DNA of 64,000 bases from a bacterium HR35 (lineage in GTDB: Bacteria; Patescibacteriota; Minisyncoccia; UBA6257; HR35). Position numbers and translations under genes: made by a program. Positions 6,630 through 64,000 of this stretch are shown one piece after another. Under the pieces are notes generated by a model. That model did not search any database. It worked only from the letters and a program-made list of their open reading frames with translations, and was not told the origin of the DNA. Position 1 is the stretch's first letter; each line of letters starts with the position of its first letter. The stretch spans positions 125,041 to 189,040 of the forward strand of contig BEIL01000001.1 of NCBI GenBank assembly GCA_002898235.1, in the 5' to 3' direction.

Positions 6630-7923
6630 AGAAATCTTGAAAAAATATTTAAGTTTTAAAACTGTTTCTACAGATAAAAATTATCAAAAGGAAATTTTAG
6701 CTTGCGTTCAATTTCTTAAAGCTCTTTTAGAAAAAAATAAGTTTAAAACAAAAATAATTTCTAATTTTGGTAATCCTCTTGTTTTAGCTGAATTAAATAA
6801 TCAAGCAAAAGAAACTATTCTTATTTATGGACACTATGATGTTCAGCCAGCAGCTAAAGAAGATGGTTGGCGGAATGACCCTTTTTCTTTATTTGAAGAT
6901 AAAAATAAATTCTATGGTCGAGGGGTTGTCGATAATAAGGGACAAAATTTAATCCACCTTTATACTCTTTTTAAACTAAATCAAGAAAATAATTTGGGCT
7001 ATAACATTAAAGTTCTTTTAGAAGGAAATGAAGAAACAGGTTCAGAAAAATTAGAAAAATTTTTAAAAACTTATAAAAATTTATTAAAAGCTGATGCAAT
7101 TTTAATTTCTGATGGAGAAATAGTAGATCACTTGCCTATTATTGATGCTGGTTTTAGAGGAGTTATTAATTTAGAAATAACTTTTCAAACAGCTAAATAC
7201 GATTTTCATTCTGGACTCTATGGTGGAGTTATTCCTAATTCTTTACATGAAACAATTAAAATTTTAAACACTTTTTTTGATTCGACTGATAAAGTTTTAA
7301 TAAATGGTTTTTATAAAGGAATTGAACCGATTGATAAAAAGATAATCTTAAATAATAAAAAAATTCCCTTTGATGAAAATAAATTTAAAAAAACTTCAGG
7401 AATTAAAAAACTTTTTACTCAAGATTTAGATTTTTATACTAAAACAGGTTTGTGGGCTACTCTCCAATTAACTGGCTTAAGTGGAGGATATACTGGAGAA
7501 GGTTTTAGAAATTCTGTTCCAGCAAAAACAATAGTAAAAATAAATATTAGGTTTGTAGAAAATCAAAGCGTCAAAGAGATTATTAAGAGCCTTAAACAAC
7601 ATCTTAAAAAGGTAAGCCATTCTTACGTTAATTATGAAATAAAGGTAAAAGAGATTGCTCCAGCTGTTAAATTAGAATTAAACAATAAATATGTTCAAAA
7701 AGCTAAGGAGCTCTTAAAAATTGTTTTTAAGCAAGAGCCAGTTTTCAAATTTTCTGGAGGCGGTTTGCCAATTGTTGCTTATTTTAAAAAGATTTTGAAA
7801 ATTCCCCAAGTTTTGGTGCCTTTAGCCAATGAAGATTGTAATATGCATTCAGTTAATGAAAATTTTGATAAAAAACTGATTGAAAAAGGATTAAAATTTA
7901 GTTATCTTTATTTTAAAAAATAA
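6598..7923 (+). CDS. M20 family metallopeptidase (dipeptidase/ArgE/DapE-like)
   Basis: Metal-ligand motifs GHYDVQP and GRGVVDNKG with an M20 dimerisation-domain architecture. Confidence 0.75.
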   Translation: MLKLSSMENFKEILKKYLSFKTVSTDKNYQKEILACVQFLKALLEKNKFKTKIISNFGNPLVLAELNNQAKETILIYGHYDVQPAAKEDGWRNDPFSLFEDKNKFYGRGVVDNKGQNLIHLYTLFKLNQENNLGYNIKVLLEGNEETGSEKLEKFLKTYKNLLKADAILISDGEIVDHLPIIDAGFRGVINLEITFQTAKYDFHSGLYGGVIPNSLHETIKILNTFFDSTDKVLINGFYKGIEPIDKKIILNNKKIPFDENKFKKTSGIKKLFTQDLDFYTKTGLWATLQLTGLSGGYTGEGFRNSVPAKTIVKINIRFVENQSVKEIIKSLKQHLKKVSHSYVNYEIKVKEIAPAVKLELNNKYVQKAKELLKIVFKQEPVFKFSGGGLPIVAYFKKILKIPQVLVPLANEDCNMHSVNENFDKKLIEKGLKFSYLYFKK

Positions 7924-11465: not shown

Positions 11466-12149
11466 ATGATTGTTTTTAAAAACGTCACCAAAATTTTTAA
11501 CGGTTATCTAAAAGCTGTTGATAATTTAAGCTTTGAAATCAAAAGCGGTGAGTTTGTTATTTTAATTGGCAAATCAGGAGCAGGGAAGACAACGGTTTTA
11601 AGGCTTATTAATAAAGAAATAGATCCGACTAGGGGGGAAATTTATTATAAAAATTTAAAAATTACCTATCTTTCTAGTGGCAAAAGAAGGGAATTAAGAA
11701 GAAAAATTATAACTGTCTTTCAAGATTTTAAACTTCTAAACAAAAAAACTGTTTATGAAAATCTAAGCTTACCTTTAGAAATTTTAGGTAAAAGTAAAAG
11801 AGAAATTGAAAAGGAAGTTTTAAGGGTAGCTGAAAAATTTAATTTAAAAGAAAAACTCGAGCAATTGGCTGAAACTTTATCTGGAGGAGAAAAACAAAAA
11901 GTAGTTTTAGCTAGAGGAATTCTTTACAATCCAGAAGTAATCTTAGCTGATGAGCCAACTGGAAATTTGGATCCTTTAAACAGTCTAGAAATAATCGAGA
12001 CTTTAAAAAAGCTGAATAATGAAGGGATAACAATTGTTTTAGCTACTCATAATCGAGAAGTAGTTAATCAATTAAAAACAAGGGTTATTACTCTTGAAAA
12101 TGGGCGAATTATTAAAGATGAAAATCCTGGAAGTTATACTTTAATCTAA
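11466..12149 (+). CDS. ftsE: Cell division ATP-binding protein FtsE
   Basis: ABC ATPase with Walker A GKSGAGKTT, signature LSGGEKQK and Walker B ILADEPTGNLD. It lies immediately upstream of ftsX. Confidence 0.85.
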   Translation: MIVFKNVTKIFNGYLKAVDNLSFEIKSGEFVILIGKSGAGKTTVLRLINKEIDPTRGEIYYKNLKITYLSSGKRRELRRKIITVFQDFKLLNKKTVYENLSLPLEILGKSKREIEKEVLRVAEKFNLKEKLEQLAETLSGGEKQKVVLARGILYNPEVILADEPTGNLDPLNSLEIIETLKKLNNEGITIVLATHNREVVNQLKTRVITLENGRIIKDENPGSYTLI

Positions 12150-48777: not shown

Positions 48778-50133
48778 ATGAAAGATTTGGAAAAAATAAT
48801 TGGAATTTTAAAACAAAGAGGTTTTATTTATCAATCGCAGGAAATTTATGGAGGCTTAAGAGGAGTTTATGATTATGGTCCTTTAGGAGTTCTCTTAAAA
48901 AATAAAGTAAAAAATTTATGGCTGAAAGATATTGTCTTTCAAAGAGAAAATATTTTCCTTATTGAATCAAGTATTTTAGGTTTAAGAAAAACTTATGAAG
49001 CCTCAGGTCATTTAGAACATTTTCACGACCCTTTAATTGAATGTAAATCTTGCCACCAAAGATTTAGAGCTGACCATCTTTTAGGAGGGGAATATGGAGA
49101 AATAAAGTTTAAAGAAGGAAAAGCTCTTTGTCCTTTTTGTCAAGGAGAATTAACTGAAGAAAGAACTTTTAATTTGATGTTTAAAACCTATATAGGCCCA
49201 GTTGAAGAATTGGCTGCTGAAGCTTATTTAAGGCCAGAAACGGCTCAAGGAATGTTTTATAACTTTAAAAATATTTTAAACTCAATGAGACCAAAGCTTC
49301 CTTTTGGTATTGCTCAAATAGGAAAAGCTTTTCGAAATGAGATTACTCCTAAAAACTTTCTATTCCGTTTAAGAGAATTTGAACAAATGGAACTAGAATT
49401 TTTTGTTAAACCTGAAGAAGCGGAAAAATGGTTTAACTTTTGGGTTGAAGAAAGATTTAACTGGTATTTAAAATTAGGTTTTAAGAAAGAAAACTTGAAA
49501 AAATATATCTACCCAAAAGAAGAATTAGCTCATTATTCAGATGCTACAATTGATATTCAATACAATTATCCTTTTGGTTTTAAAGAATTAGAGGGGATCG
49601 CTAATCGGACAAATTATGATTTAAGAAGACATTCAGAATATTCAGGAGAAGATTTAACTTACTTTGATGAAGAAAAAAAAGAAAAATATTATCCCTATGT
49701 AATTGAACCTTCGGTTGGGATTGATAGACTATTATTTGCTATTTTTGTTGAATTTTATGATGAAGATGAAATTGATCAAGAAAAAAGAAATGTTTTTCGT
49801 TTTCCTCCTTTTTTAGCTCCAATTGAAGTAGCTGTTTTTCCTCTTTTGAGTAATCGAGAAGTTTTAGTTAAAAAATCTCGGGAAGTTTATAACTTAGTTA
49901 AAAAAGATTTTATTGCTCTTTATGATGATTCTGGATCAATAGGAAAAAGATATCGAAGACAAGATGAAATTGGAACTCCTTTTTGTTTAACAATTGATTT
50001 TCAAACTTTAGAAGATAATACTCTAACAATAAGAGATAGAGATACAACCGAACAAGTTAGAATAAAGATTGAAGAAATAAAAGATTTTCTTAAGGATAAA
50101 TTAAGGTGGGCGGGAGAGGACTCGAACCTCTAA
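48778..50133 (+). CDS. glyQS: Glycine--tRNA ligase (class II, homodimeric archaeal/eukaryal-like glyQS type)
   Basis: QSQEIYGGLRGVYDYGPLG N-terminal block, class II motifs and an anticodon-binding C-terminus. The 3' end overlaps tRNA-Val on the opposite strand by about 27 nt. Confidence 0.9.
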   Translation: MKDLEKIIGILKQRGFIYQSQEIYGGLRGVYDYGPLGVLLKNKVKNLWLKDIVFQRENIFLIESSILGLRKTYEASGHLEHFHDPLIECKSCHQRFRADHLLGGEYGEIKFKEGKALCPFCQGELTEERTFNLMFKTYIGPVEELAAEAYLRPETAQGMFYNFKNILNSMRPKLPFGIAQIGKAFRNEITPKNFLFRLREFEQMELEFFVKPEEAEKWFNFWVEERFNWYLKLGFKKENLKKYIYPKEELAHYSDATIDIQYNYPFGFKELEGIANRTNYDLRRHSEYSGEDLTYFDEEKKEKYYPYVIEPSVGIDRLLFAIFVEFYDEDEIDQEKRNVFRFPPFLAPIEVAVFPLLSNREVLVKKSREVYNLVKKDFIALYDDSGSIGKRYRRQDEIGTPFCLTIDFQTLEDNTLTIRDRDTTEQVRIKIEEIKDFLKDKLRWAGEDSNL

Positions 50134-50180
50134 CCTTCGGCACGTCAAGCCGACGCTCTAGCCAGTTGAGCTACCCGCCC
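50107..50180 (-). tRNA. tRNA-Val (anticodon GAC)
   Basis: Manual fold of GGGCGGG-TA-GCTC..GAGC-G-TCGGC-TTGACGT-GCCGA-..-AGAGG-TTCGAGT-CCTCT-CCCGCCC-A with anticodon GAC. The 3' CC is encoded but not the full CCA. Confidence 0.85.
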
Positions 50181-50550
50181 TTTTTTCTTCAAAAAATTTT
50201 TTAATTTTAGCAACTAAATCGTCTAAAGAAATTTTCGCTTTAACAAAATATTCAATAGCTCCTAACTTTAATCCTTTTTCAACATCTTCTGGCTGGCCCA
50301 ATTGGGAAATAACAAAAACAGGAATAGCTTTAAGATTAGGATCTTTTCTAAAATCTTCTAAAAAATTAAAACCTGTTTTTTTAGGTAAGATAATATCTAA
50401 CAAAACCAAATCAGGTAATTCAGTAATTAATTTTGCTAAACCCTCTTCTCCATCGGAAGCGGTAATCACTTCAAATCCTTCTTTTTTTAATTTTTTTTCT
50501 AAAGCTAATTTTAAGAATTGATCGTCTTCAATTATTAAAATTTTAGGCAT
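50158..50550 (-). CDS. Single-domain response regulator (CheY-like receiver)
   Basis: MPKILIIEDDQ...LLDIILPKKTGF with the phospho-acceptor Asp, and KAIPVFVIS...K. Its 3' end reads about 23 nt into tRNA-Val. Confidence 0.8.
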   Translation of the reverse strand: MPKILIIEDDQFLKLALEKKLKKEGFEVITASDGEEGLAKLITELPDLVLLDIILPKKTGFNFLEDFRKDPNLKAIPVFVISQLGQPEDVEKGLKLGAIEYFVKAKISLDDLVAKIKKFFEEKRAGSSTG

Positions 50551-50561
50551 CTTTATAGTTT

Positions 50562-50603
50562 TTAGAATCTTAACGTTTCGGGTATTTTAGGAAGAGCTTA
50601 GCT
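50562..50603. repeat. 3' arm of the 16S precursor processing stem (complementary to 52183-52223)
   Basis: 50562-50582 ttagaatcttaacgtttcggg is the exact reverse complement of 52203-52223. Complementarity extends with 2-3 mismatches to about 40 bp. Confidence 0.6.
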
Positions 50604-50640
50604 AAGACTCAGCTTAGAAAAGTTTGATCTTAGCTTTTAA

Positions 50641-52177
<1,537 letters not shown>

Positions 52178-52182
52178 GTCTA

Positions 52183-52223
52183 TAGCCAAGCTCTTCTAAA
52201 AACCCGAAACGTTAAGATTCTAA
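52183..52223. repeat. 5' arm of the 16S precursor processing stem (complementary to 50562-50603)
   Basis: Seen directly; this is the partner of the 3' arm at 50562-50603. Confidence 0.6.
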
Positions 52224-52319
52224 TCTAAATAAAAATTAAGAGAGCATTAATATATCAACAATTCATCAAGCTCTCCTAAAACTAACTATTATTATAGCCA
52301 AAAAATGATTTTAAGTCAA

Positions 52320-54660: not shown

Positions 54661-55542
54661 TTGAAGTTAAATTATCTAATGAAAAAGATTTTAATTTTAT
54701 TTGCCTTATCTTTTATAACAATCTTCATCATTTATTTTTCAACAAGCTATCAAACAAAAAATCTCAATAATGAACATTTAGATGGGAAAAATAAATTAAC
54801 CCCGTCTTCAAGCTTTAATAAAAAAGAATCGATAACATCTACTTCTTCAGATATAAAAGAGAAAATTATTAAAGAACTCGATTTGTCTTTAGAAATCAAA
54901 AATAAAACTACTTTAAAAACTTTTAATGATGATAAATATAAAGTTAGCTTTCAATATCCTGAAAAGTTTGTTATTATTCCTGAAAATGATTGTTCTCGGG
55001 TTTTATTGGAAAATTCTAAAGAAGAAAATTGTCTTTTATCTTTATCAATTTATCCATTAAATGTAAACAAAAAATATATTCCGCCAGCTAGTTTTTGGTT
55101 AATAAAAGATTTAACTTCCGTAAATATCTACGGGCAGACAGTTAGCGTATTTTATGATAAACAATCAAAAAGTTGGGTTGAGGTTTCCTCTATTGATAAA
55201 AAAAAGCTATCAATTTATTCATTCACTTATCAAGGAAAACCAATTTTAAAAGCTCAAAATGGCGGAAGCCATGGTTGGGCTGATTTTTATATTATTCCAG
55301 ATTATAAAAAAAATATAGTTGCTATTTTTTCTTTTATCCAAGAGTATCGCCTTCGGTGCGATTTAATTGAGGATGAAAATGAAAAAAGAGAATGTTTAAA
55401 TTATTTAAATTCTATAATTCAACAATTTGGAGAAAAAGAAAAATCAAAGCAAAGTTATTATGCTGAGGGTTGGCTTCCCCAAGAATTTTTTAAAAATATT
55501 TATTCTGAAGCTGAATCTATTGTAAAAAGCTTAAGTTTTTAA
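54661..55542 (+). CDS. Hypothetical secreted/membrane-anchored protein
   Basis: N-terminal TM or signal segment; no recognisable domain. Confidence 0.35.
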   Translation: MKLNYLMKKILILFALSFITIFIIYFSTSYQTKNLNNEHLDGKNKLTPSSSFNKKESITSTSSDIKEKIIKELDLSLEIKNKTTLKTFNDDKYKVSFQYPEKFVIIPENDCSRVLLENSKEENCLLSLSIYPLNVNKKYIPPASFWLIKDLTSVNIYGQTVSVFYDKQSKSWVEVSSIDKKKLSIYSFTYQGKPILKAQNGGSHGWADFYIIPDYKKNIVAIFSFIQEYRLRCDLIEDENEKRECLNYLNSIIQQFGEKEKSKQSYYAEGWLPQEFFKNIYSEAESIVKSLSF

Positions 55543-55629
55543 TTAAATTAACAAAATTTGTTTTTTTGTATTTTTATTATAAAATTTTATTAAGAACTTT
55601 AAGGCCGAAATTAAATAATTTAAAATAAA

Positions 55630-56121
55630 ATGAAAAAGTTTTTTCTAATTGCTTTATTATTTTTAGCTATTTCTTTATTTGTTTTAGGCCAAGGAACATC
55701 TACGCCTACCTCAACTCCAACTTCAACACCTACAAGCACCTCTACTTCAACACCTTCTACCTCAACGCCAACAACTACTCCATCTAAAGGTCCAAAAAAA
55801 TTAGATCTTGCCTGTGTAAAAGCTGCTGTTGAAAAAAGAGAAGATGCTTTAAAAACTGCTCGAGAAAATTATTTTTCTAAAATAAGTCAAGCTTATGAAG
55901 AAAGAAAGACAGCTTTGAGTAATGCTTGGTCAATTGAAAATCATAAAGAAAGACAAAAAGCAATTCATGATGCTTGGTCAAATTTCCGCAAAGCAGTAAG
56001 AAATGCTTGGGCTGAATATAGAAAAGCTCATAATCAAGCTTGGAAACAATTTGTTAGTGATAGAAAAAATTGTGGTTCAGGTCCAACTGGTGAAAATCCA
56101 GGAGTTGATTTAAGCTTTTAA
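55630..56121 (+). CDS. Hypothetical secreted protein with (TSTP)n linker and repeated helical AW motifs
   Basis: Signal peptide, then TSTPTSTPTSTPTSTSTSTPSTSTPTTTPS, then repeats of the type ..ALSNAWS / IHDAWSNF / VRNAWAEY / HNQAWKQF. Confidence 0.4.
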   Translation: MKKFFLIALLFLAISLFVLGQGTSTPTSTPTSTPTSTSTSTPSTSTPTTTPSKGPKKLDLACVKAAVEKREDALKTARENYFSKISQAYEERKTALSNAWSIENHKERQKAIHDAWSNFRKAVRNAWAEYRKAHNQAWKQFVSDRKNCGSGPTGENPGVDLSF

Positions 56122-56177
56122 AGATTATAATTTATTATAATTTTTTAATTTTTTATTCTTTAATTAGTTTATCAATA

Positions 56178-57071
56178 TTAACCAATATTAACTTCTGAAA
56201 TCCATTTATCTAAGTTTCTTTTTATATATTCAATTTCTTCTTTAAAATTTTTTGATTGGAAATTATATTTCTCCGCATATTTTTTTAGCTCTAATAATCC
56301 CTTTTCTTTCTCGCCTTTAAATATGTAATTTATAAGCAAAGAAATTAACTTACCAAAATAATACTCTTCATTTGAATAAGAACTATAATATCCATTATTT
56401 AATATTTTTTCTAACCTTTTTATTTCATTTTCATAAAAATTAGGAAAATTTTTTAACGATATTTTATAAACCCCATCTTCTAAACTAAAAATAACATAAA
56501 CTTCAGGTGAACAGGCATGACAAACATTCTGATAAAATTCCCAACGACTATCAAGAGCAATTATTTCTTCTACTCCATCATTATTTAAATCTTCTAATTC
56601 TATAAGTTTCAGCCATTTTTCCATCGATTCTTCTGGATAATCAATTTTTATTTTTTCAATCCTTTCATTTCTTATTTTTAAAATTTCAATCCATCTACAT
56701 TGCCAACAATTGCCTCCTGTCCATAAATTTAAAACAATTTCAGGTATCTTATCTCCATCGATATCTTTTAGCCTATATTCTATAGTATGCTCTCTTTTCT
56801 CAAACAAGCTTAAAGATTGATTGGAAGTTAAATTATACACTTTAAAAACCTGCTCTTGAATATCAGAAGGTTTATCTGAAACTTTTTCTAAAAGTAATAA
56901 TAAGAAACTTTTATTTCCTATAAAAATTTTTTCTTTTGAAACAACTTTATACTTCTCATTTACAAAAACTAAATTTTTTTGCCATTTTAAAACTAAGATA
57001 ATTGAAAGAATAGACAATAAAACTAAAACAATCAAAATGGTATTTTTCTTGATAAAATTCATTTTTGACAA
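56178..57071 (-). CDS. Hypothetical membrane-anchored protein with Cys pairs (CWQC...CHAC)
   Basis: N-terminal TM helix; no recognisable domain. Confidence 0.35.
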   Translation of the reverse strand: MSKMNFIKKNTILIVLVLLSILSIILVLKWQKNLVFVNEKYKVVSKEKIFIGNKSFLLLLLEKVSDKPSDIQEQVFKVYNLTSNQSLSLFEKREHTIEYRLKDIDGDKIPEIVLNLWTGGNCWQCRWIEILKIRNERIEKIKIDYPEESMEKWLKLIELEDLNNDGVEEIIALDSRWEFYQNVCHACSPEVYVIFSLEDGVYKISLKNFPNFYENEIKRLEKILNNGYYSSYSNEEYYFGKLISLLINYIFKGEKEKGLLELKKYAEKYNFQSKNFKEEIEYIKRNLDKWISEVNIG

Positions 57072-57180
57072 TTTTTACTTAATCTCCTTTTAATTTCTTC
57101 GACAATTCATCAGGATCAATTTTTATTTTAGGTAATTTTGGCCAAGTATCTAATTTATTAATTATTATTTTAATTTAAAT

Positions 57181-57627
57181 TTATTTTTCAACAACCATTA
57201 CATCTAAATCCTCAAAATCTCTTGCTACTTTTTTGATTATTTCTTTTGCTCTTTCTTTTTCTAATCCTACAACACCAGTGCCAAGAAGAGGAAGAGCTAT
57301 ACTTTTCATCTTATTTTCTTTGCACCAGCTGAAAACCTTAATTAAGACACTTTCAAGCATAGAATAAGAAATCTTTTTAGAATTTTTATAGTCTATCGTT
57401 GGAATATGAACTATCTTTTTAGCTTTTAAATTTCCAGCAGAAGTAATTGCAAAATCTCCTAAATCAACCCAACCTATTTTATCACTTTCTTCTTGAATAA
57501 TTTTTCCTCCTTTTAACAAAATTGCTCTTGCTACCCCACCTCCATGTTTTAATTCAGTATTTGCTGCATTCACTATCACATCAGCCTTTATTTCTGTTAT
57601 ATCTCCTTTAATAAATTGTAAACCCAT
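57181..57627 (-). CDS. Macro domain protein (ADP-ribose / O-acetyl-ADP-ribose binding or hydrolysing)
   Basis: MGLQFIKGDITEIKADVIVNAANTELKHGGGVA is the canonical macro-domain N-terminal block. 148 aa stand-alone. Confidence 0.8.
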   Translation of the reverse strand: MGLQFIKGDITEIKADVIVNAANTELKHGGGVARAILLKGGKIIQEESDKIGWVDLGDFAITSAGNLKAKKIVHIPTIDYKNSKKISYSMLESVLIKVFSWCKENKMKSIALPLLGTGVVGLEKERAKEIIKKVARDFEDLDVMVVEK

Positions 57628-57837
57628 AATTTAATTTTAGCAATTTCAAAATCAAATTTATTATCTTTTAAAATTGCTGCTGTACCAAAAATTTTCAAAA
57701 GGAGAAATTGATAATTTTGAAGAAATTCGTTCTGGAATGCTCGCCTATATCAATGAATTGCGAATGTTGGATTGGTGGGATATAAATCAAATAACGAAAT
57801 TAATAAAACTTAATGCTGTTTAAATGTTTGCTATAAA

Positions 57838-59307
57838 TTATTGATTAATACATTTATATTGTAGCAATAATGAAGTGTAATCTTTTGATATATCCAAAAG
57901 AGATCTCTCAATATTGTCATAACTTTTTAATAGGTCTTCAGTTTCTTTTTTTATTTGATATTTAAATTCAGTAAATAGTGATGGAGAATACAGAAAGGGA
58001 TTAAGTTTTACGTTGTTTAAATATTCTAATCTTAGACTCATATTTCTCAAAGTATTTTTAAAATTATTTATAATATTCAAAAAACCTAATTGAGAAGATA
58101 AAAGTTTTTCTTTATTAATATATTTTAAATTAGGATCATAAGAAAGTTGTGTTACTAATTCTGTCGTTTTATCTAGCTCATCCATCAAATTTGGATATGC
58201 ATATAAAAGTGCATTATACTCGAGAGATATATCTCCCAATTGCAAGATACTATTTCCTTTTTCGAAAACAGATCTTATTTTACTAGATATTGTTTTTATT
58301 AAACTCCAAAAATATGAAATTTCACTATTAATTTCATTACAAATTTGTACTCTCTTTGTTATATCTTCTATTCTTAATCCTAATTTCAAAATATCTAAAG
58401 AAGACTTAATGGTATTTGATGGAATAGCAAATTTTAAAGCTTCCCCTACTTTAATGTCTCCTATGCGTGATTCAGGTATTTTAAATACAGCCATCCCTAT
58501 TACTTTCCCATATTCATCAAATACAGGAGAACCGCTATTACCTGGATATGCTTCTATCGAAATTTCTAAAAATTCTTTGTTATCTAGATTTATTTTTCTA
58601 CTAAATAAACCTTCTTTTACACTAACATCTCCTTCTAAACCTAAAGGATATCCTAATAGATAAATTTTACTTCCTGGAATTAAATTAACAGAATTAGCAA
58701 ACATAATATGTTTTATTTGAGATAGAGGATAATCTATTTTTAGTAAGGCTATATCATTAATTTCGTCATAAGAAATAATTTGAGCATCTAATTCTATTGT
58801 AGGTTTGTATGTATTTAAAACTACTTTTACTACACTACTTGAATCTACAACATGATAATTCGTTAATATATGTCCTTTATTATTCAAAATAAAACCAGTG
58901 CCATTACTGATAGCATTTCCTTTATATGCTTTTATAAAAACCACATTATACTTATAAAAATTAAATAATTCAGTGGCAGTAAATTTTTTATTCGGTATTA
59001 ACTCCTTTAATTTAGAAATGCCTTTGTAATTAAATGCGTATCCAGACCAGTTTCCTATATAATCGTTATAAAAATTTTTTACGGCTTGTACTAAATCTTT
59101 ATCATAAATACCTGAGATTTGATTTTCTGTTAGATATCCTAGTGTTACCAAACATGCTTGAATGTTTTTTATGTTTGTCCCTTTTTGTAAATATCGTGCT
59201 ATTTTAATTTTTTCAGGATTACATTCTTGTGCAAATGTAACTTTAAAAGAAATAAAAATAAGATTTAATAAGAAGAAGCAAATTATAAAAATTTTTAATT
59301 TTTTCAT
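57838..59307 (-). CDS. Secreted trypsin-like serine protease (S1C/Trypsin_2) with N-terminal peptidoglycan-binding domain
   Basis: Signal peptide, PG_binding_1-like block NIQACLVTLGYL..D.DLVQAVKNF, His block GTGFILNNKGHILTNYHVV and Ser block GNSGSPVF. Confidence 0.7.
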   Translation of the reverse strand: MKKLKIFIICFFLLNLIFISFKVTFAQECNPEKIKIARYLQKGTNIKNIQACLVTLGYLTENQISGIYDKDLVQAVKNFYNDYIGNWSGYAFNYKGISKLKELIPNKKFTATELFNFYKYNVVFIKAYKGNAISNGTGFILNNKGHILTNYHVVDSSSVVKVVLNTYKPTIELDAQIISYDEINDIALLKIDYPLSQIKHIMFANSVNLIPGSKIYLLGYPLGLEGDVSVKEGLFSRKINLDNKEFLEISIEAYPGNSGSPVFDEYGKVIGMAVFKIPESRIGDIKVGEALKFAIPSNTIKSSLDILKLGLRIEDITKRVQICNEINSEISYFWSLIKTISSKIRSVFEKGNSILQLGDISLEYNALLYAYPNLMDELDKTTELVTQLSYDPNLKYINKEKLLSSQLGFLNIINNFKNTLRNMSLRLEYLNNVKLNPFLYSPSLFTEFKYQIKKETEDLLKSYDNIERSLLDISKDYTSLLLQYKCINQ

Positions 59308-59369
59308 GTGAATTTTAATGTATTAATCCAATTTTTTAATTCTTACTTATTTTTAAACCAACATTTCAA

Positions 59370-59434
59370 TTTTAACCCCCACATTTTACTTTATATATTT
59401 TTTTAACCCACCTCCTTTACTCTATATATTTTCT
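59370..59434. repeat. Imperfect 33-bp tandem direct repeat upstream of the TerS-like gene
   Basis: TTTTAACCCCCACATTTTACTTTATATATTTTT is followed directly by TTTAACCCACCTCCTTTACTCTATATATTTTCT. Confidence 0.5.
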
Positions 59435-59468
59435 CTATACTCAAATTTTATCATAAAATTTTATTGGA

Positions 59469-59816
59469 ATGAAAAAAATTGGGAGACCAACAAAATATAG
59501 TAAGGAGTTATTGGAAAAGGCTTTTGATTATGCTGAAAACTATAGAAATTATGGGGATGTTATTCCTTGTATTGGGGGATTGGCTTTAGTATTAGGAGTT
59601 CATAAGGATACTATTTATGAATGGGCAAAGAGATATCCAGAATTTTCCGACATGCTGAAGATTTTACATACCAAACAGGTTAAGATTTTAATAAATTTAG
59701 GGTTAGTTGGTAAAGTAAATACAGCTATTGTTAAATTATTATTAGCTAAACAGGGTTATACAGAAAGGCAGGAATTAAGTATAGAAAATAAGAAGATAGT
59801 TGTTTTGGATGCGTAA
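59469..59816 (+). CDS. Phage terminase small subunit-like HTH protein (Terminase_5/gpP-like)
   Basis: GRPTKYSKELLEKAFDYAE...GGLALVLGVHKDTIYEWAKRYPEFSD matches the phage TerS/HTH pattern GRPTKY...G.S...a..LGis..T...W...yPEF. Confidence 0.55.
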   Translation: MKKIGRPTKYSKELLEKAFDYAENYRNYGDVIPCIGGLALVLGVHKDTIYEWAKRYPEFSDMLKILHTKQVKILINLGLVGKVNTAIVKLLLAKQGYTERQELSIENKKIVVLDA

Positions 59817-59825
59817 TAGTAATAG

Positions 59826-59884
59826 AAACCTAAACCTGACCTGCCCTATATATACTATATTAAGGCAGGTTAGGTTGGGGGTTT
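59826..59884. promoter_or_regulatory. Inverted repeat flanking an AT-rich core, immediately upstream of the serine recombinase gene; candidate att/res-type recombinase binding site
   Basis: GAAACCTAAACCTGACCTGCC - ctatatatactatattaa - GGCAGGTTAGGTTGGGGGTTT. The half-sites AACCTAACCTGCC and GGCAGGTTAGGTT are near-perfect reverse complements. Confidence 0.4.
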
Positions 59885-59961
59885 ATATTGCGGATAGGAA
59901 GACAAATATCTATTTTTACAAAAATTTATCAATTTTGGGCGAAATTTATTATAATTCACAT

Positions 59962-61593
59962 ATGAAAATGGCAGGGCTAAAATATATCATTTATGCTAGA
60001 AAGAGCTCAGAAGCAGAGGATAGGCAGGTTTTATCTTTAGAATCTCAGGTAGAAGAATTGCAAAAATTAGCAGAAAGAGAAGGTTTAGAGGTTATTGATG
60101 TCCTTACTGAAGCTAAAAGTGCTAAAGAGCCTGGAAGAGAGATATTTAACTTAATGATTGAAAAAATTAAGAAAGGAGAAGCTAATGCTATTTTATGTTG
60201 GAAGATAGATAGGTTAAGTAGAAATCCTATAGATTCAGGGACTATTCAGTGGCTTTTACAAAAAGAAATAATAAAAGAAATTAGAACTCCTGAAAGAATT
60301 TATAGACCAGAAGATAATGCTTTGTTATGGGCAGTTGAAACTGGTATGGCTAATCAGTACATAAGAGATTTGGCTATTAACACTAAAAGAGGTTTAAAAA
60401 AGAAGGCTGAGAAGGGATTTAAACCTGGATTAGCTCCATTAGGATATATTAACAACAAATATGCTCCTAAAGGAGAACATAATTATTTTCCTGATCCAGA
60501 AAGATTTCCTATTATTAGAAGAGTTTTTGAAACTTTAGCTACTGGAAATTACACGCCAAAAGAAGTTTATAGAATGGCAACTGAAGAATGGGGTTTAACT
60601 AATAGATATGGCAAAAAACTTTCTTCGAGTAAATTTTATACTATGTTAAGATGTCCTGATTATTATGGAGAATTTGAATATCCTAAGGGTTCTGGTAATT
60701 GGTATAAAGGCAATTATGAACCAGCAATTGATAAAGAAACTTGGTTATTGGTTCAAGAGATTTTGAATAAAAAAGGCAATCATAAAAATAGAAAAATTAT
60801 TCATATGTTTAGAGGTTTATTAAGATGTGGAGAATGCGGAGGAGTTTTGACTAGCTATGAAAAGATAAAGAAAAATAAAAAAGGTGAGGTTTTTAGATAT
60901 GTTTATTATGAGTGTGCTAAAAAGAAAAACTATCCAGGCATTTGCTCTCAAAAACCTATTAGAGAAGAGGAATTAGAAAGATAAATTTTACAGGTTTTAT
61001 CAAATATTAGTATTCCTGAAGCAATTCATAATTGGGCTATAAATGCTTTAAAAGAAGAACAAAGAAAAAGAAGAGAAGACAGAGAGAAAAATTTAAGCCA
61101 TTATAAAAGAATGTATTCGGCTATTACTAATCAAATAGACAATCTCATTAATATGAAATCATTAGGAGAAATTACTGATGAAGAATTTCAGAGAAGTATT
61201 GTTTCTTTAAGAAAAAGAAAACAAGCTATTGAAAATATGTTAAGAGAGCAGGAATATGAAGATGAAAACTGGATTGATTATGCTATTGATTATGTAAATA
61301 TTGTTGGAAAAATAAAAGAGGCTTATATTAATGGTGATATAGGGATAAAGAGGACAATCTTAAAGTGTATAGGTTCTGAATTTATAGTAAAAGATAAAAA
61401 ATTGAATATAAAGATAGAGCCTATATTTATGGTTCGAATAATGGAACTTCCTGGTGAATTAGAGACGGGGGGTGTATTCGAACCAGTCAAAAATAAAGAA
61501 AAGCAAGATTTTAACAGGGATTTTGAAAATATAGAAGAAAATCAGTCCTCTTTGCTCCGGGGGCAGGATTCGAACCTGCGACATCCTGGTTAA
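59962..61593 (+). pseudogene. Large serine recombinase (resolvase/invertase-type catalytic domain, recombinase domain, zinc ribbon and C-terminal coiled-coil) interrupted by a single in-frame TAA at 60982-60984
   Basis: Catalytic block LKYIIYARKSSEAEDRQVLSLESQ with the nucleophile Ser, and zinc ribbon CGECGG...YYECAKKKNYPGIC. The same reading frame continues without a stop from 60985 through track ORF 61111-61593. The final ~13 codons are translation of antisense tRNA-Asn, so the true C-terminus is probably earlier. Confidence 0.7.
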
Positions 61594-61626
61594 CAGCCAG
61601 GCGTTCTACCGCTGAACTACCCCGGA
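61555..61626 (-). tRNA. tRNA-Asn (anticodon GTT)
   Basis: Manual fold of TCCGGGG-TA-GTTC..GAAC-G-CCTGG-CTGTTAA-CCAGG-..-GCAGG-TTCGAAT-CCTGC-CCCCGGA-G with anticodon GTT. Confidence 0.85.
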
Positions 61627-61663
61627 ATAAATTTTAGTGTTTTATATATTATTATACCACAAC

Positions 61664-62341
61664 TCAATAAATTATTGTTCCAATGAATTTTTTGTTTTCT
61701 AAAAATCTTTTTAGGTGACTTAATTTTCTACCATTAATTATAACAACTTTAAATTTAAATTTTTTAGCAAGTTTTGAAGCAATAGGATCAAAAGGTGCTG
61801 ACATTCCTGGAGTCCAATCGTTTCTAATTAATTTTAAGTAATTAGACCAAGAAATTTCTCTAAGAGGTTTAGCATCTTTATATTTATTCGGGTCTTTATC
61901 ATAAACATAATCAATATTTGTTAAATTTATTATTGTATCTGAACCATAAGTTTTTGCTAACCAAACTGCATCATAGTCAGTGCTAAAACCTGGTTTCCAA
62001 CCAGCAGCAATTAAAATTTTTTCTCTAAAATTTACTTTTTCTTTTGGATTTTTTATAATTCGGTAATAAGCTTTGTCTCTAAAAATCGTTAGAAGCAAAT
62101 GAGCATTTAAACGAGTAGCATGAATTCCTAACCAATCAAGATCTTCGGTTGATGGTTTTGTTAATTTTTTAGCTGCTTGTTGATATTTACGGGCTATTTT
62201 TCCTCCACCAACAATAATAATGAATTTAAAATTTTTCTTGGTATAATAGTCAATTAAATTTTTAAATTTTTTTAAAAAATTAAAATCAATTTCTTGAGGA
62301 ACAACCAAACTTCCTCCAAGAGAAATAACGAAAAACTTCAT
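61664..62341 (-). CDS. pyrH: Amino-acid kinase family protein, most like archaeal-type UMP kinase (PyrH)
   Basis: MKFFVISLGGSLV nucleotide-binding N-terminus and IIVGGGKIARKY glycine-rich loop. About 225 aa, the size of archaeal-type UMP kinases. Confidence 0.5.
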   Translation of the reverse strand: MKFFVISLGGSLVVPQEIDFNFLKKFKNLIDYYTKKNFKFIIIVGGGKIARKYQQAAKKLTKPSTEDLDWLGIHATRLNAHLLLTIFRDKAYYRIIKNPKEKVNFREKILIAAGWKPGFSTDYDAVWLAKTYGSDTIINLTNIDYVYDKDPNKYKDAKPLREISWSNYLKLIRNDWTPGMSAPFDPIASKLAKKFKFKVVIINGRKLSHLKRFLENKKFIGTIIY

Positions 62342-62405
62342 TTTCAGTTTATTTTATTAAAAATAAACCGAAAAATAAAAATTTTTGATTATAAAATATC
62401 TTATA

Positions 62406-63467
62406 ATGGTTTATGATTTTTCTCTTTATGATTATAATCTACCCGAAGAATTAATTGCTAAAGAACCAGCTAAACCAAGAGATTTTTCAAGGCTTTTTAT
62501 TTATTCTGTCAAAGAAGATAAAATTTTGTTTGATAAATTTTTTAATCTTGATAAATATTTATCTAAAGATTGTTTTTTAGTTTTTAATAATACTAAAGTT
62601 TTGCCTTCGAGAATAGAAATGATAAAAGAAACAGGGGGAAAAATTAAAATTCTTTTTCTAATTAATGAAATAATTTATAGTAGAATTAATAAAATTAGAG
62701 GGATAGTTGATCGAAAATTAGAAGTGGGTCAAAAGGTTTATTTTCCTGAAAAGAAAAAATTTTTAATTGCTATTTCTCAAGAAAAAAATATTTTTACTTT
62801 CGAAATTAATTTTGATTTCCAAGAATTTCTAAAACTTCTTAACACTTATGGCGAAGCTCCTTTACCTCCGTATCTTAAAAAAACTCCTTTAACCAAACAA
62901 GAGGCAAAAAAGAAATATCAAACTATTTTTGCAAAGAAAGAGGGATCGGTGGCAGCGCCAACTGCTTCATTTCATTTTACTCAAAGAGTTTTAAATAAAT
63001 TAAAGAAAAAGAAAATTAAGCATTTTTTTGTTACTCTTCATGTTGGTTTAGGAACTTTTAGTCCAGTAACTGAAAAAAATATTAAGAAGAAAAAACTTCA
63101 TCAAGAATATTGGGAAATAAATGAAGATGTTTATCAGCAGATTCTAAAACTTAAAAAAAATAAAAAATTAATTGCTGTAGGAACAACTACTACCCGGCTT
63201 TTAGAAACAATTGCTCGGAAAAAATTAAAATTTAAAAACAAAAAAGCAATTGGAACAACTGAACTTTTTATTTTTCCTCCTTTTGAATTTAAATTAGTTG
63301 ATGGCTTGATTACTAATTTTCATTTGCCTAAATCAAGTTTAATGATGCTTGTTGAAGCTTTTTTGCAATTTAAAAATTCAAAAAGACATTTAAAAGAACT
63401 GTATGAAATAGCTATTAAAAATAAATTTAGATTCTATTCTTTCGGCGATGCAATGTTAATTATTTAA
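62406..63467 (+). CDS. queA: S-adenosylmethionine:tRNA ribosyltransferase-isomerase QueA (track ORF starts at TTG 62385; ATG at 62406 is preferred)
   Basis: N-terminus MVYDFSLYDYNLPEELIAKEP and conserved GEAPLPPY block. Confidence 0.85.
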   Translation: MVYDFSLYDYNLPEELIAKEPAKPRDFSRLFIYSVKEDKILFDKFFNLDKYLSKDCFLVFNNTKVLPSRIEMIKETGGKIKILFLINEIIYSRINKIRGIVDRKLEVGQKVYFPEKKKFLIAISQEKNIFTFEINFDFQEFLKLLNTYGEAPLPPYLKKTPLTKQEAKKKYQTIFAKKEGSVAAPTASFHFTQRVLNKLKKKKIKHFFVTLHVGLGTFSPVTEKNIKKKKLHQEYWEINEDVYQQILKLKKNKKLIAVGTTTTRLLETIARKKLKFKNKKAIGTTELFIFPPFEFKLVDGLITNFHLPKSSLMMLVEAFLQFKNSKRHLKELYEIAIKNKFRFYSFGDAMLII

Positions 63468-63473
63468 TCAAAA

Positions 63474-64000
63474 ATGTTTGAAGTAATAAAATTTTCAAAA
63501 AAATCAAAAGCTAGATTAGGGATTATTAAAACTTTTCATGGAGAAATTAAAACTCCAGCTTTTGTTCCTGTTGCCACTAAGGGAACTATTAAAGCTTTAC
63601 CTCAAATATTTTTTAAAGAAATAGGGATTCAGTTAGCTTTTGTTAATACTTATCATCTTGTTAATCATCCAGGAGCTGAAATAATTGATAAAGCTGGCGG
63701 TATTCATAAATATGCTAATTTAAATTTACCTTTAATGAGCGATTCTGGTGGTTTTCAAGTTTTTTCTTTAGCACAAAAAAAGAGAGTTAAATTAAGAAAT
63801 GACGAAGAAACAATTTTAGTAAAAATTGAGGAAGATAGAGTTGTTTTTAGGTCAAATTTTAATAACAAAGAATTAGAATTTACTCCCGAAAAATCAATTG
63901 ATTATCAAATAAAAATTGGAGCTGATCTTGTAATGGCTTTTGATGAATGTATTACCTATCCAACAACTTACGATTATGCTAAAAAAGCTACCCAAAGAAC
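63474..64000 (+). CDS. tgt: Queuine tRNA-ribosyltransferase (5' part; the gene continues past the window edge)
   Basis: Manual translation from ATG at 63474 gives MFEVIKFSKKSKARLGIIKTFHGEIKTPAFVPVATKGTIKAL...MSDSGGFQVFSL, the canonical Tgt N-terminal blocks. Adjacent to queA. Confidence 0.85.
   Translation, partial: MFEVIKFSKKSKARLGIIKTFHGEIKTPAFVPVATKGTIKALPQIFFKEIGIQLAFVNTYHLVNHPGAEIIDKAGGIHKYANLNLPLMSDSGGFQVFSLAQKKRVKLRNDEETILVKIEEDRVVFRSNFNNKELEFTPEKSIDYQIKIGADLVMAFDECITYPTTYDYAKKATQR

Follow-up and report, generated by a model that had tools for sequence, protein, structure and literature searches.

A probable remnant of a large serine recombinase element at tRNA-Asn(GTT) of bacterium HR35, and its tRNA-targeting relatives

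Here, we describe a short locus beside a tRNA gene of 'bacterium HR35', a Parcubacteria-type genome, that lies in a stretch of 64,000 nucleotides (nt) with a G+C content of ~27% (GenBank contig BEIL01000001.1, positions 125,041 to 189,040; hereafter 'the window', to which all coordinates given without a locus name refer). At this locus, a gene resembling those for the small terminase subunit (TerS) is followed by a gene for a large serine recombinase (LSR) that is interrupted by a single in-frame stop codon and ends inside an oppositely oriented tRNA-Asn(GTT) gene. With a probability that we put at roughly 0.8, the locus is the stranded remnant of a small integrative element that used its LSR to enter the 3' part of this tRNA gene; we call it stranded because a replication module, an excisionase-like gene, a gene for the large terminase subunit (TerL) and a distal attachment (att) site are all missing from the window. 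The locus itself is a case of ordinary genome decay, and its interest lies in the clade of tRNA-targeting LSRs to which its recombinase belongs. The features that carry the argument are as follows:

59469-59816, + strand: intact small-terminase-like gene of the P22 gp3 helix-turn-helix (HTH) type, 115 amino acids (aa) (PF16677, PHROG 309)
59962-61593, + strand: LSR frame, 543 codons (340 codons, TAA, 202 codons, then the stop)
59962-60984, + strand: LSR part 1, 340 codons, with the resolvase domain, the recombinase domain and the four-Cys zinc ribbon; ends at the premature TAA
60982-60984, + strand: premature stop TAA, between ELER and ILQVL, in place of a Gln (CAA) or Glu (GAA) codon in the helix before the coiled coil
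60985-61593, + strand: LSR part 2, 202 codons plus stop in the same frame, with the coiled coil, the last zinc-ribbon beta-hairpin and the disordered tail
61554-61593, + strand: LSR-tRNA overlap, the last 13 codons plus stop, antisense of the tRNA 3' half
61554/5-61626, - strand: intact tRNA-Asn(GTT), putative attachment target and attR-like junction (ARAGORN; Rfam RF00005, 75 bits)

Judged by its domain content and its similarity to the A118 and TP901-1 structures, the enzyme is a bona fide LSR. It exceeds the Pfam cut-offs for Resolvase (PF00239, E 1.8e-19), Recombinase (PF07508) and Zn_ribbon_recom (PF13408), the last match spanning the premature stop when this is read as X; on the profile PHROG 95 'integrase', part 1 covers positions 84-427 and part 2 resumes at 425-566. 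The alignment columns Y11-A12-R13-K14-S15-S16 (the YARKSS motif), R84, R87, C289, C292, C318 and C328 are invariant, and the protein is similar to the C-terminal domains of the A118 integrase (4KIS, E 3e-6) as well as to the catalytic domains of TP901-1 and conjugative-transposon enzymes. An earlier sequence-only reading of the window had recognised a resolvase domain with YARKSS, a recombinase domain, a Cys4 zinc ribbon and a coiled-coil C-terminus; the Pfam search and the invariant columns confirm the first three of these, and the fourth is found in an AlphaFold model of P0001, an intact homologue with 88% identity to the window LSR (mean predicted local distance difference test score [pLDDT] 79). 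In this model, two long antiparallel helices (residues 351-398 and 404-429) form the coiled coil, the preceding helix (333-345) holds the mutated position, the last beta-hairpin of the zinc-ribbon domain lies at 469-483, and the tail from residue 492 has a pLDDT below 50. The corresponding coiled-coil region of the window LSR, all of it downstream of the premature stop, aligns to 4KIS.

Apart from the TAA, the frame contains no further stop and no frameshift, in agreement with what had been read from the sequence. A protein search returned 2772 relatives at E <= 1e-10; among the best 120 of these, 116 are 518-564 aa long (the others being a 375-aa fragment and proteins of 415, 528 and 529 aa), and in every one of the 120 the two parts form a single protein, so that we are dealing with one broken gene and not with two normally separate ones. 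The alignment column at the stop holds Glu or Gln, with Gln in at least 90% of 30 diverse family members. Comparison with uninterrupted homologues, by which the sequence-only reading had proposed to identify the original codon, yields GAA (locus L001) or CAA (L044 and L045), each one base away from TAA, and the lesion is best read as a one-base nonsense mutation, C-to-T or G-to-T. This mutation is recent, because the ratio of nonsynonymous to synonymous divergence (dN/dS) between the window LSR and that of L001 is low on both sides of the TAA (0.067 upstream and 0.10 downstream, at a dS of 0.7-0.9) and no other lesion is present; the stretch downstream has not had time to decay. An alternative genetic code or recoding of TAA was considered and rejected, TAA being the usual stop of this genome (it ends 27 of 38 long open reading frames [ORFs]). 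On the same ground, the suggestion that the nonsense codon acts as a switch finds no support, and the change is moreover a substitution and not a slippage-prone repeat.

The first ATG past the TAA stands at 61111, 126 nt downstream. In the A118, phiC31 and Bxb1 integrases, the coiled coil is needed for synapsis and for the control of directionality. By analogy, the 340-aa product of the window gene, lacking the coiled coil and the last beta-hairpin, should be incapable of controlled recombination between attP and attB or between attL and attR. The window copy has no uninterrupted reading frame of a functional LSR; the one-base stop, the missing modules and the intact copies found at tRNA-Asn elsewhere together uphold the earlier view of an inactivated recombinase at the decaying end of an element.

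At its 3' end, the LSR gene enters the tRNA: the strand opposite the acceptor 3' strand, T arm, variable region and anticodon stem-loop supplies its codons LLRGQDSNLRHPG (61552-61590) and its stop TAA at 61591-61593, and this stop is the complement of U35-U36-A37 of tRNA-Asn. The earlier description of an ORF running into the 3' end of tRNA-Asn with antisense last codons is thereby right in substance and needs one correction, as the ORF ends at 61593 and not at the far end of the tRNA at 61626. The integrase adjoins a full-length tRNA gene, as it does in tRNA-integrating islands. A pair of attL and attR sites bounding an element is lacking, and only the tRNA-side junction is present: no distal tRNA 3' fragment was detected within 30 kb upstream (35-mer with 3 mismatches; word-7 BLAST; 12-24-mers with 1-5 mismatches), nor was a mirrored GC-rich acceptor-type motif in the 54-59.5 kb region. 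The partner att site that the sequence-only reading had called for was therefore not found in the window, and no related empty-site genome with the same left flank was found either.

What an undamaged copy looks like is seen in the closest relatives. In L001 (AP024681.1, a 680-kb Parcubacteria genome), an intact 532-aa LSR with 88% identity to that of the window runs into tRNA-Asn(GTT), whose T-stem gives a TAG stop; upstream of it are genes for a 647-aa primase-helicase and a 57-aa MerR/excisionase-like HTH protein, genes without assignment and a type IIG restriction-modification gene. L130 (BPJG01000001.1) comprises pyrH, tRNA-Asn, an intact 541-aa LSR (87% identical to the window's) and a primase-helicase, and window positions 59915-62404 (LSR, tRNA-Asn, pyrH) are collinear with it at 83% nucleotide identity; nucleotide homology of the window to both L001 and L130 starts at 59915. 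The LSRs of L130 and L001 are 96% identical (dS 0.27) at loci with different flanks, which indicates that the integrase module moves between genomes and lands in tRNA-Asn. In L045, whose LSR is 73% identical, a TerS-like gene lies 3.5 kb upstream of the LSR gene, and between the two are genes for two secreted proteins, an excisionase-like HTH protein and an AAA_25 ATPase. A replication module of the primase/helicase type, present in L001, L044, L045, L130 and L083, is absent from the window, as is any excisionase-like gene.

The small gene upstream of the LSR had been described as a phage-type HTH or TerS-like gene, and this assignment is borne out: its product covers positions 1-104 of the 105 in the Pfam profile PF16677 (GP3_package), scoring 64.3 bits where the cut-off is 29.4 (E 1.3e-17), and it also matches PHROG 309 'terminase small subunit'. 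Its closest homologue is that of L045 (66% aa identity), and relatives at 37-48% identity occur on viral contigs of 30-46 kb. A tblastn search detected no TerL anywhere in the window. The presence of terS in the absence of terL, known from packaging hijack by elements resembling phage-inducible chromosomal islands (PICIs), may reflect satellite biology or gene loss, and the TerS gene could be phage-derived or of satellite type. Phage structural genes were not found near the locus, and the window has none of the large terminase, portal, capsid and tail genes that mark a temperate prophage. The sequence-only reading had left the choice between an integrated phage and an integrative element; the latter stands, and the former is not shown, the closest relatives being islands with a primase-helicase or with cargo and without structural genes.

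Three candidate signals accompany these genes:

59372-59430, + strand: two tandem ~31-nt promoter-like repeats (TTAACC-16 nt-TATATT, twice), from sequence and consensus scan
59819-59891, no strand: strong, imperfect palindrome or hairpin centred on TATATA, separating the TerS-like gene from the LSR gene
59926-59955, + strand: best promoter-like match, TTATCA-18 nt-TATAAT (10/12), just upstream of the LSR start

The tandem repeats fall in the 161-nt spacer upstream of the TerS-like gene and are weak, the total of promoter-like matches in this region being no higher than in shuffled sequences. A likeness between the regions left of the TerS genes in L045 and in the window was rejected (96 of 500 shuffles score equally). 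The palindrome has a folding energy of -36.2 kcal/mol (z -5.8), which none of 200 shuffles equalled, and could be a terminator, an operator or an origin-like element. Palindromes with a TATATA centre recur in the close subfamily 70-150 nt upstream of the LSR start (L045 3888-3948; L001 9757-9877, two of them; L044 9917-9957), with arm sequences that vary among loci and a structure that is kept.

To place the window copy within its family, we surveyed 80 genome loci with relatives at 38-73% identity, 65 of which were evaluable (complete ORF and at least 100 nt downstream). An oppositely oriented tRNA gene contains or borders the LSR stop at 45 of these 65 loci, and the targets are tRNA-Asn (15), tRNA-His (12), tRNA-Gln (8), tRNA-Lys (5) and one each of the tRNAs for Ser, Arg, Ala, Ile and Leu. 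At another 11 (L046, L049, L064, L075, L082, L091, L102, L108, L112, L113 and L115), the ORF runs out in the 3' half of a tRNA, which extends to the anticodon loop and there gives way to a group I intron (Rfam RF00028 in 5 of 6 tested). We had first considered loci 'without tRNA' as free attP sites and rejected this for these eleven. Altogether, antisense tRNA overlap is found at 56 of the 65 loci and involves 9 amino-acid specificities and 11 anticodons. Before it reaches the junction, the LSR ORF is without a stop at every locus, and it terminates at whichever stop comes first in the tRNA, 10-142 nt inside. The overlap of ORF and tRNA, which L001 and L130 show as well, is thus a feature of the family and not an oddity of the decayed window copy. 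Because ARAGORN misses tRNAs split by group I introns, the adjacency of integrases to tRNA genes is under-counted in genomes that have such tRNAs.

Three loci give an indication of the att sites. In L118, 19-20 nt of the tRNA 3' end recur 10.25 kb upstream, and the two repeats enclose genes for ribonucleotide reductase, oxidases, a SpoVG-like protein and small proteins together with the LSR; L070 has a 24-nt repeat of the tRNA 3' end 169 nt upstream; and L083 has a 23-24-nt repeat, with an intact tRNA-Asn beyond 5.7 kb of integrase-less genes. All three repeats span the tRNA from its 3' end to the T-loop. At these three loci, the att identity block would appear to be ~20-24 nt long with a crossover in or beside the T-loop, and the same repeats suggest that DNA accretes between a resident element and the tRNA. 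In most family loci, a long tRNA fragment was not detectable within 10 kb, and the junction of LSR tail and tRNA had no exact match in viral contigs. We also considered L083 as a free attP and rejected this, the intact tRNA-Asn 5.7 kb further on making it a tandem or accreted arrangement. The intervening block (L083 11555-17351) encodes a radical SAM protein, two class II aminoacyl-tRNA synthetase-like proteins, an LD-carboxypeptidase and a methyltransferase, and is possibly a cassette mobilised in trans.

Target choice may be flexible within the family. L098 and L100 are 88% identical in nucleotide sequence and abut an intron-containing tRNA-Asn-like gene and a tRNA-Gln(CTG) gene, respectively; they diverge just inside the tRNA 3' end (~11540-11575), past the CCA, the discriminator and one further base, and their targets have near-identical T-arms. 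We read this pair as a natural target switch or a case of relaxed specificity.

Several other observations were made at family loci. In L087 (8349-11602), genes for a 382-aa tyrosine integrase and an excisionase-like HTH protein lie immediately upstream of the LSR gene at the same tRNA-Lys, and a 56-nt copy of the LSR tail and tRNA acceptor end is found 9.5 kb upstream, a sign that elements with integrases of two families are arranged in tandem or nested at a single tRNA. In L001 (11587-11965), a second copy of the tRNA-Asn 5' half, ending at the anticodon loop, stands beside the intact tRNA-Asn; a 20-nt palindrome interrupts its D-loop region, a gene for a 79-aa GIY-YIG endonuclease lies between copy and intact tRNA, and the copy may have been left behind by an intron/homing-endonuclease event or by some other insertion. 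A Saccharibacteria contig, L046, has a LOOT RNA (Rfam RF03000, 72 bits) at 7571-7685 on the - strand, ~2.3 kb upstream of the LSR gene.

The 3' ends of the LSR genes hold a further feature. In 72 LSR genes (loci L044-L123), the final 330 nt contain 56 copies of the palindrome GGTTCGAACC; the remaining 1.16 Mb of these loci have only 4, and its density is ~690-fold higher in the LSR 3' ends than elsewhere. Its consensus, GGTT(C/A)GAACCT, equals a T-arm with one loop base fewer. It occupies two places, site A 170-172 nt and site B 67-69 nt before the tRNA 3' end, with 103-104 nt from A to B in 38 loci and 81-82 nt from B to the true T-arm box. Site A encodes Gly-Ser-Asn-Leu, its codons being fixed (GGT in 36 of 38, TCG in 38 of 38 and AAC in 38 of 38, against a gene background of 21%, 15% and 47%). 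Site B encodes Phe/Leu-Glu-Pro at 31 loci, and another 7 loci read it one frame over, as Val-Arg-Thr; the protein tail that holds site B is the part predicted to be disordered in P0001. Because the nucleotides are kept across three reading frames and at synonymous positions, selection must act on the palindromes at the DNA or RNA level and not on the protein only. No correlation between the palindrome variant (TTCGAACC or TTAGAACC) and the type of tRNA is evident. The window subfamily has its own variant of these clade-wide palindromes, an inverted box pair shared with L001 and L044:

61430-61485, no strand: inverted pair of T-loop-like boxes in the coding region of the LSR tail, TGGTTCGAAT at 61430-61439 and ATTCGAACCA at 61476-61485

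The string ATTCGAACC occurs only three times in the 64 kb, always within 61431-61576, namely in the two LSR-tail boxes and in the tRNA itself.

These palindromes are possibly accessory or decoy integrase binding sites, or fossil T-boxes of earlier junctions that have acquired a function. The internal Phe-Glu-Pro palindrome was also considered as the crossover site and rejected, since every integrated copy has the conserved tail and the tRNA downstream of it. In its most developed form, the idea is that the clade is specialised on tRNA genes (at least 9 specificities and 11 anticodons, mostly in Patescibacteria) and uses the T-arm-mimicking palindromes GGTTCGAACCT as accessory or decoy integrase sites in the manner of res, placed at ~103 and ~82 bp, in roughly helical phase, from the T-arm crossover, with the disordered protein tail largely a by-product of this DNA; we advance this tentatively and think it somewhat unlikely as a whole. 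A res-like architecture has, to our knowledge, never been reported for LSRs, and we know of no LSR that uses accessory sites.

Left of the remnant, the genes are host-type or without family assignment. They comprise a class II aminoacyl-tRNA synthetase gene, a gene for a DUF4870 protein, three ORFs without a family match, a gene for a Macro-domain protein and the left neighbour of the TerS-like gene:

57838-59307, - strand: trypsin-like protease gene

Between this protease gene and tRNA-Asn(GTT), the TerS-like gene and the LSR gene are the only genes, both on the + strand; pyrH and queA are among the neighbours of the locus. Provided that the protease gene is host DNA, the left edge of the remnant is bracketed to 59308-59468. 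The block at 54661-59307, with ORFs of 293, 163 and 297 aa without family matches, the Macro-domain gene and the protease gene (peptidoglycan-binding and trypsin-like), has no counterpart beside tRNA-Asn/pyrH in the related genomes L130-L133 and may be older island material accreted at the same tRNA. At the LSR-free tRNA-Asn loci L131 and L132 (9549-16000), defence-like genes follow the tRNA (an AAA_11/AAA_12 helicase with DUF559, SLFN/AlbA_2 and DUF5681), which suggests that the tRNA-Asn site is a variable island hotspot across the lineage. Farther left, 8 kb from the remnant, is a 16S rRNA gene (50640-52176, - strand; 56% G+C versus the 27% background) that has no 23S neighbour within the window. 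An inverted repeat of 39 nt (50549-50587 and 52198-52236; 82% complementary), probably a processing stem, encloses this gene, and a tRNA-Val(GAC) gene (50105-50180) lies just downstream of it.

We propose the following course of events for the locus. The intact element would have had its LSR gene at the tRNA-proximal end, reading outward, with the stop supplied by the antisense tRNA. Its attP and the chromosomal attB would have shared the last 20-24 nt of the tRNA (acceptor 3' strand, T-stem and T-loop), whereby the tRNA would be rebuilt on integration, and new DNA could accrete between a resident element and the tRNA. Subsequently, the element would have lost its primase-helicase or AAA_25 module, its excisionase-like HTH gene, any assignable cargo and its distal att site, leaving the TerS-like gene, the palindrome and the LSR gene in the window. 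A single base change would then have created the TAA and truncated the product after the zinc ribbon and before the coiled coil, and the element would be unable to excise or integrate by itself.

This reconstruction has to be weighed against other accounts. In one of them, the TAA stems from an error of sequencing or consensus calling, or represents a minority allele, and the LSR is intact at an element end that is still active. Elsewhere the gene shows no flaw and evolves under purifying selection, and breakage is rare in the family (a truncated LSR ORF in only 1 of ~73 other complete loci), as such an account would have it. The TAA nevertheless recurs in L042, an independent Logan assembly (run DRR101367) that is 100% identical to the window over 7378 nt (56623-64000), and is no artefact of assembly; a short-read consensus seldom contains substitution errors, and even an intact LSR would sit in a locus without a distal att site, a replication module or an excision module. 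We hold an error or a minority allele to be highly improbable. A different possibility is that the locus descends from a true temperate phage with the gene order TerS-TerL-LSR that has lost TerL and its structural genes, and not from a satellite or cargo island. At least 30 IMG/VR contigs do have an LSR directly after TerS and TerL, these LSRs being distant relatives (33-43% identity, ~425 aa), and the relatives of the window TerS on viral contigs fit this origin, but the close LSR relatives (69-96%) all belong to elements with a primase-helicase or AAA_25 protein, an excisionase-like HTH protein, and restriction-modification or metabolic cargo, none of them with TerL, and the surroundings are devoid of phage structural genes. 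A phage ancestry of this kind seems unlikely to us.

The TerS-like HTH gene and the LSR gene could also be a complete two-gene module, either a mobile element of minimal size or a site-specific recombination system that has been domesticated, with the HTH protein as regulator or directionality factor, so that the nonsense mutation would be the only damage. Consistent with such a module, the two genes adjoin each other without TerL in L047, L091, L092 and L101 (LSR identity 40-43%), the TerS-like gene of the window is intact, and between the window and L130 the dS of the LSR gene (0.91) is comparable with that of the neighbouring host gene pyrH (0.67). The same four loci, however, carry more element genes upstream (HTH_36 proteins and a methylase), L045 has other genes between its TerS homologue and its LSR gene, the collinear L130 has a primase-helicase and not TerS upstream of the LSR gene, and no second att site is detectable in the window; a self-sufficient module is quite unlikely on this evidence. 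Certain points nonetheless tell against a stranded remnant. The TerS-LSR adjacency in the four distant loci may reflect a functional module and not debris, and the closeness of the two dS values may mean that the LSR gene is a long-term resident under selection, which fits domestication as well as an active element. Furthermore, the TAA may be a consensus error or a polymorphism within the population, the second assembly probably deriving from reads of the same project. Finally, the left boundary is only bracketed, because no relative was found that combines the left flank of the window with an empty site. Metagenomes scanned with the protease of this flank gave relatives at 24-35% only, and the relatives of pyrH led to L130, which is syntenic and occupied, and to L131 and L132, where tRNA-Asn has other neighbours; none of them has the left flank of the window. 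'Truncated' thus rests on comparison with relatives and not on a deletion scar.

The wider importance of the stranded remnant lies with its relatives. Characterised LSRs target protein-coding or intergenic sites, and the literature does not describe them as known to target tRNA genes. Sites in tRNA genes are not used by those mycobacterial prophages and PICI-like elements that have a serine integrase (PMC10654092), and the large LSR survey of Durrant et al. deals with protein-coding targets only and never mentions tRNA (PMC10083194). A search of the literature for serine recombinases and tRNA in the candidate phyla radiation (CPR), Patescibacteria or Saccharibacteria returned nothing relevant. 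As far as this limited search goes, the LSRs described here form a large and apparently undescribed clade that inserts into tRNA genes. Such a clade would be an exception to the working rule by which tRNA genes belong to the tyrosine integrases, and it would supply natural serine integrases with a highly conserved and universally present class of target, the T-arm and acceptor end of tRNA, which is of relevance to island formation in tiny CPR genomes and to integrase engineering. The conserved palindromes inside the gene raise a testable question about the assembly of the enzyme on DNA.

Among known systems, the phage-type LSRs (Listeria A118/LI, phiC31, Bxb1 and TP901-1) have the same three-domain build, with a resolvase catalytic domain, a recombinase domain and a zinc-ribbon domain into which a coiled coil is inserted, and likewise have their gene at the element end. 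The present family differs from them in that the ORF ends in antisense tRNA, T-arm-like palindromes lie inside the gene, and the att identity block seems to be 20-24 nt and not a few nt long; the window copy, in addition, is a pseudogene. In genetic layout, the closest parallels are the tycheposons, tRNA-integrating islands with primase-helicase, cargo, tandem copies and degraded remnants beside the tRNA (bioRxiv 10.1101/2020.12.28.424599), and the PICI-like satellites. Shared with these, as seen across L001, L130, L045, L118 and L083, are the small size, the tRNA-proximal integrase, the primase-helicase, metabolic or defence cargo and, in some, terS without terL, as well as tandem accretion and degenerate remnants beside the tRNA. 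The integrases of tycheposons, however, almost all belong to a specific clade of tyrosine recombinases, whereas those described here are LSRs and their hosts are Patescibacteria/CPR and others; the likeness is one of gene content and layout, and the window copy has no replication module. The tRNA-targeting tyrosine integrases of Islander-type islands are alike in their target at the tRNA 3' end (T-loop/acceptor class), in tRNA regeneration and in the position of the integrase gene beside the tRNA, and the displaced distal tRNA 3' fragment of such islands is also seen in L118, L083 and L070; they belong to another enzyme family with another chemistry, and most LSR loci have no long tRNA fragment within 10 kb. 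By analogy only, the palindromes recall sites I-III of Tn3/gamma-delta res, with several dimer-sized and partly palindromic sites spaced in roughly helical phase (~103 and ~82 bp) beside the crossover; unlike those of res, the putative LSR sites would lie inside the coding sequence of the recombinase itself.

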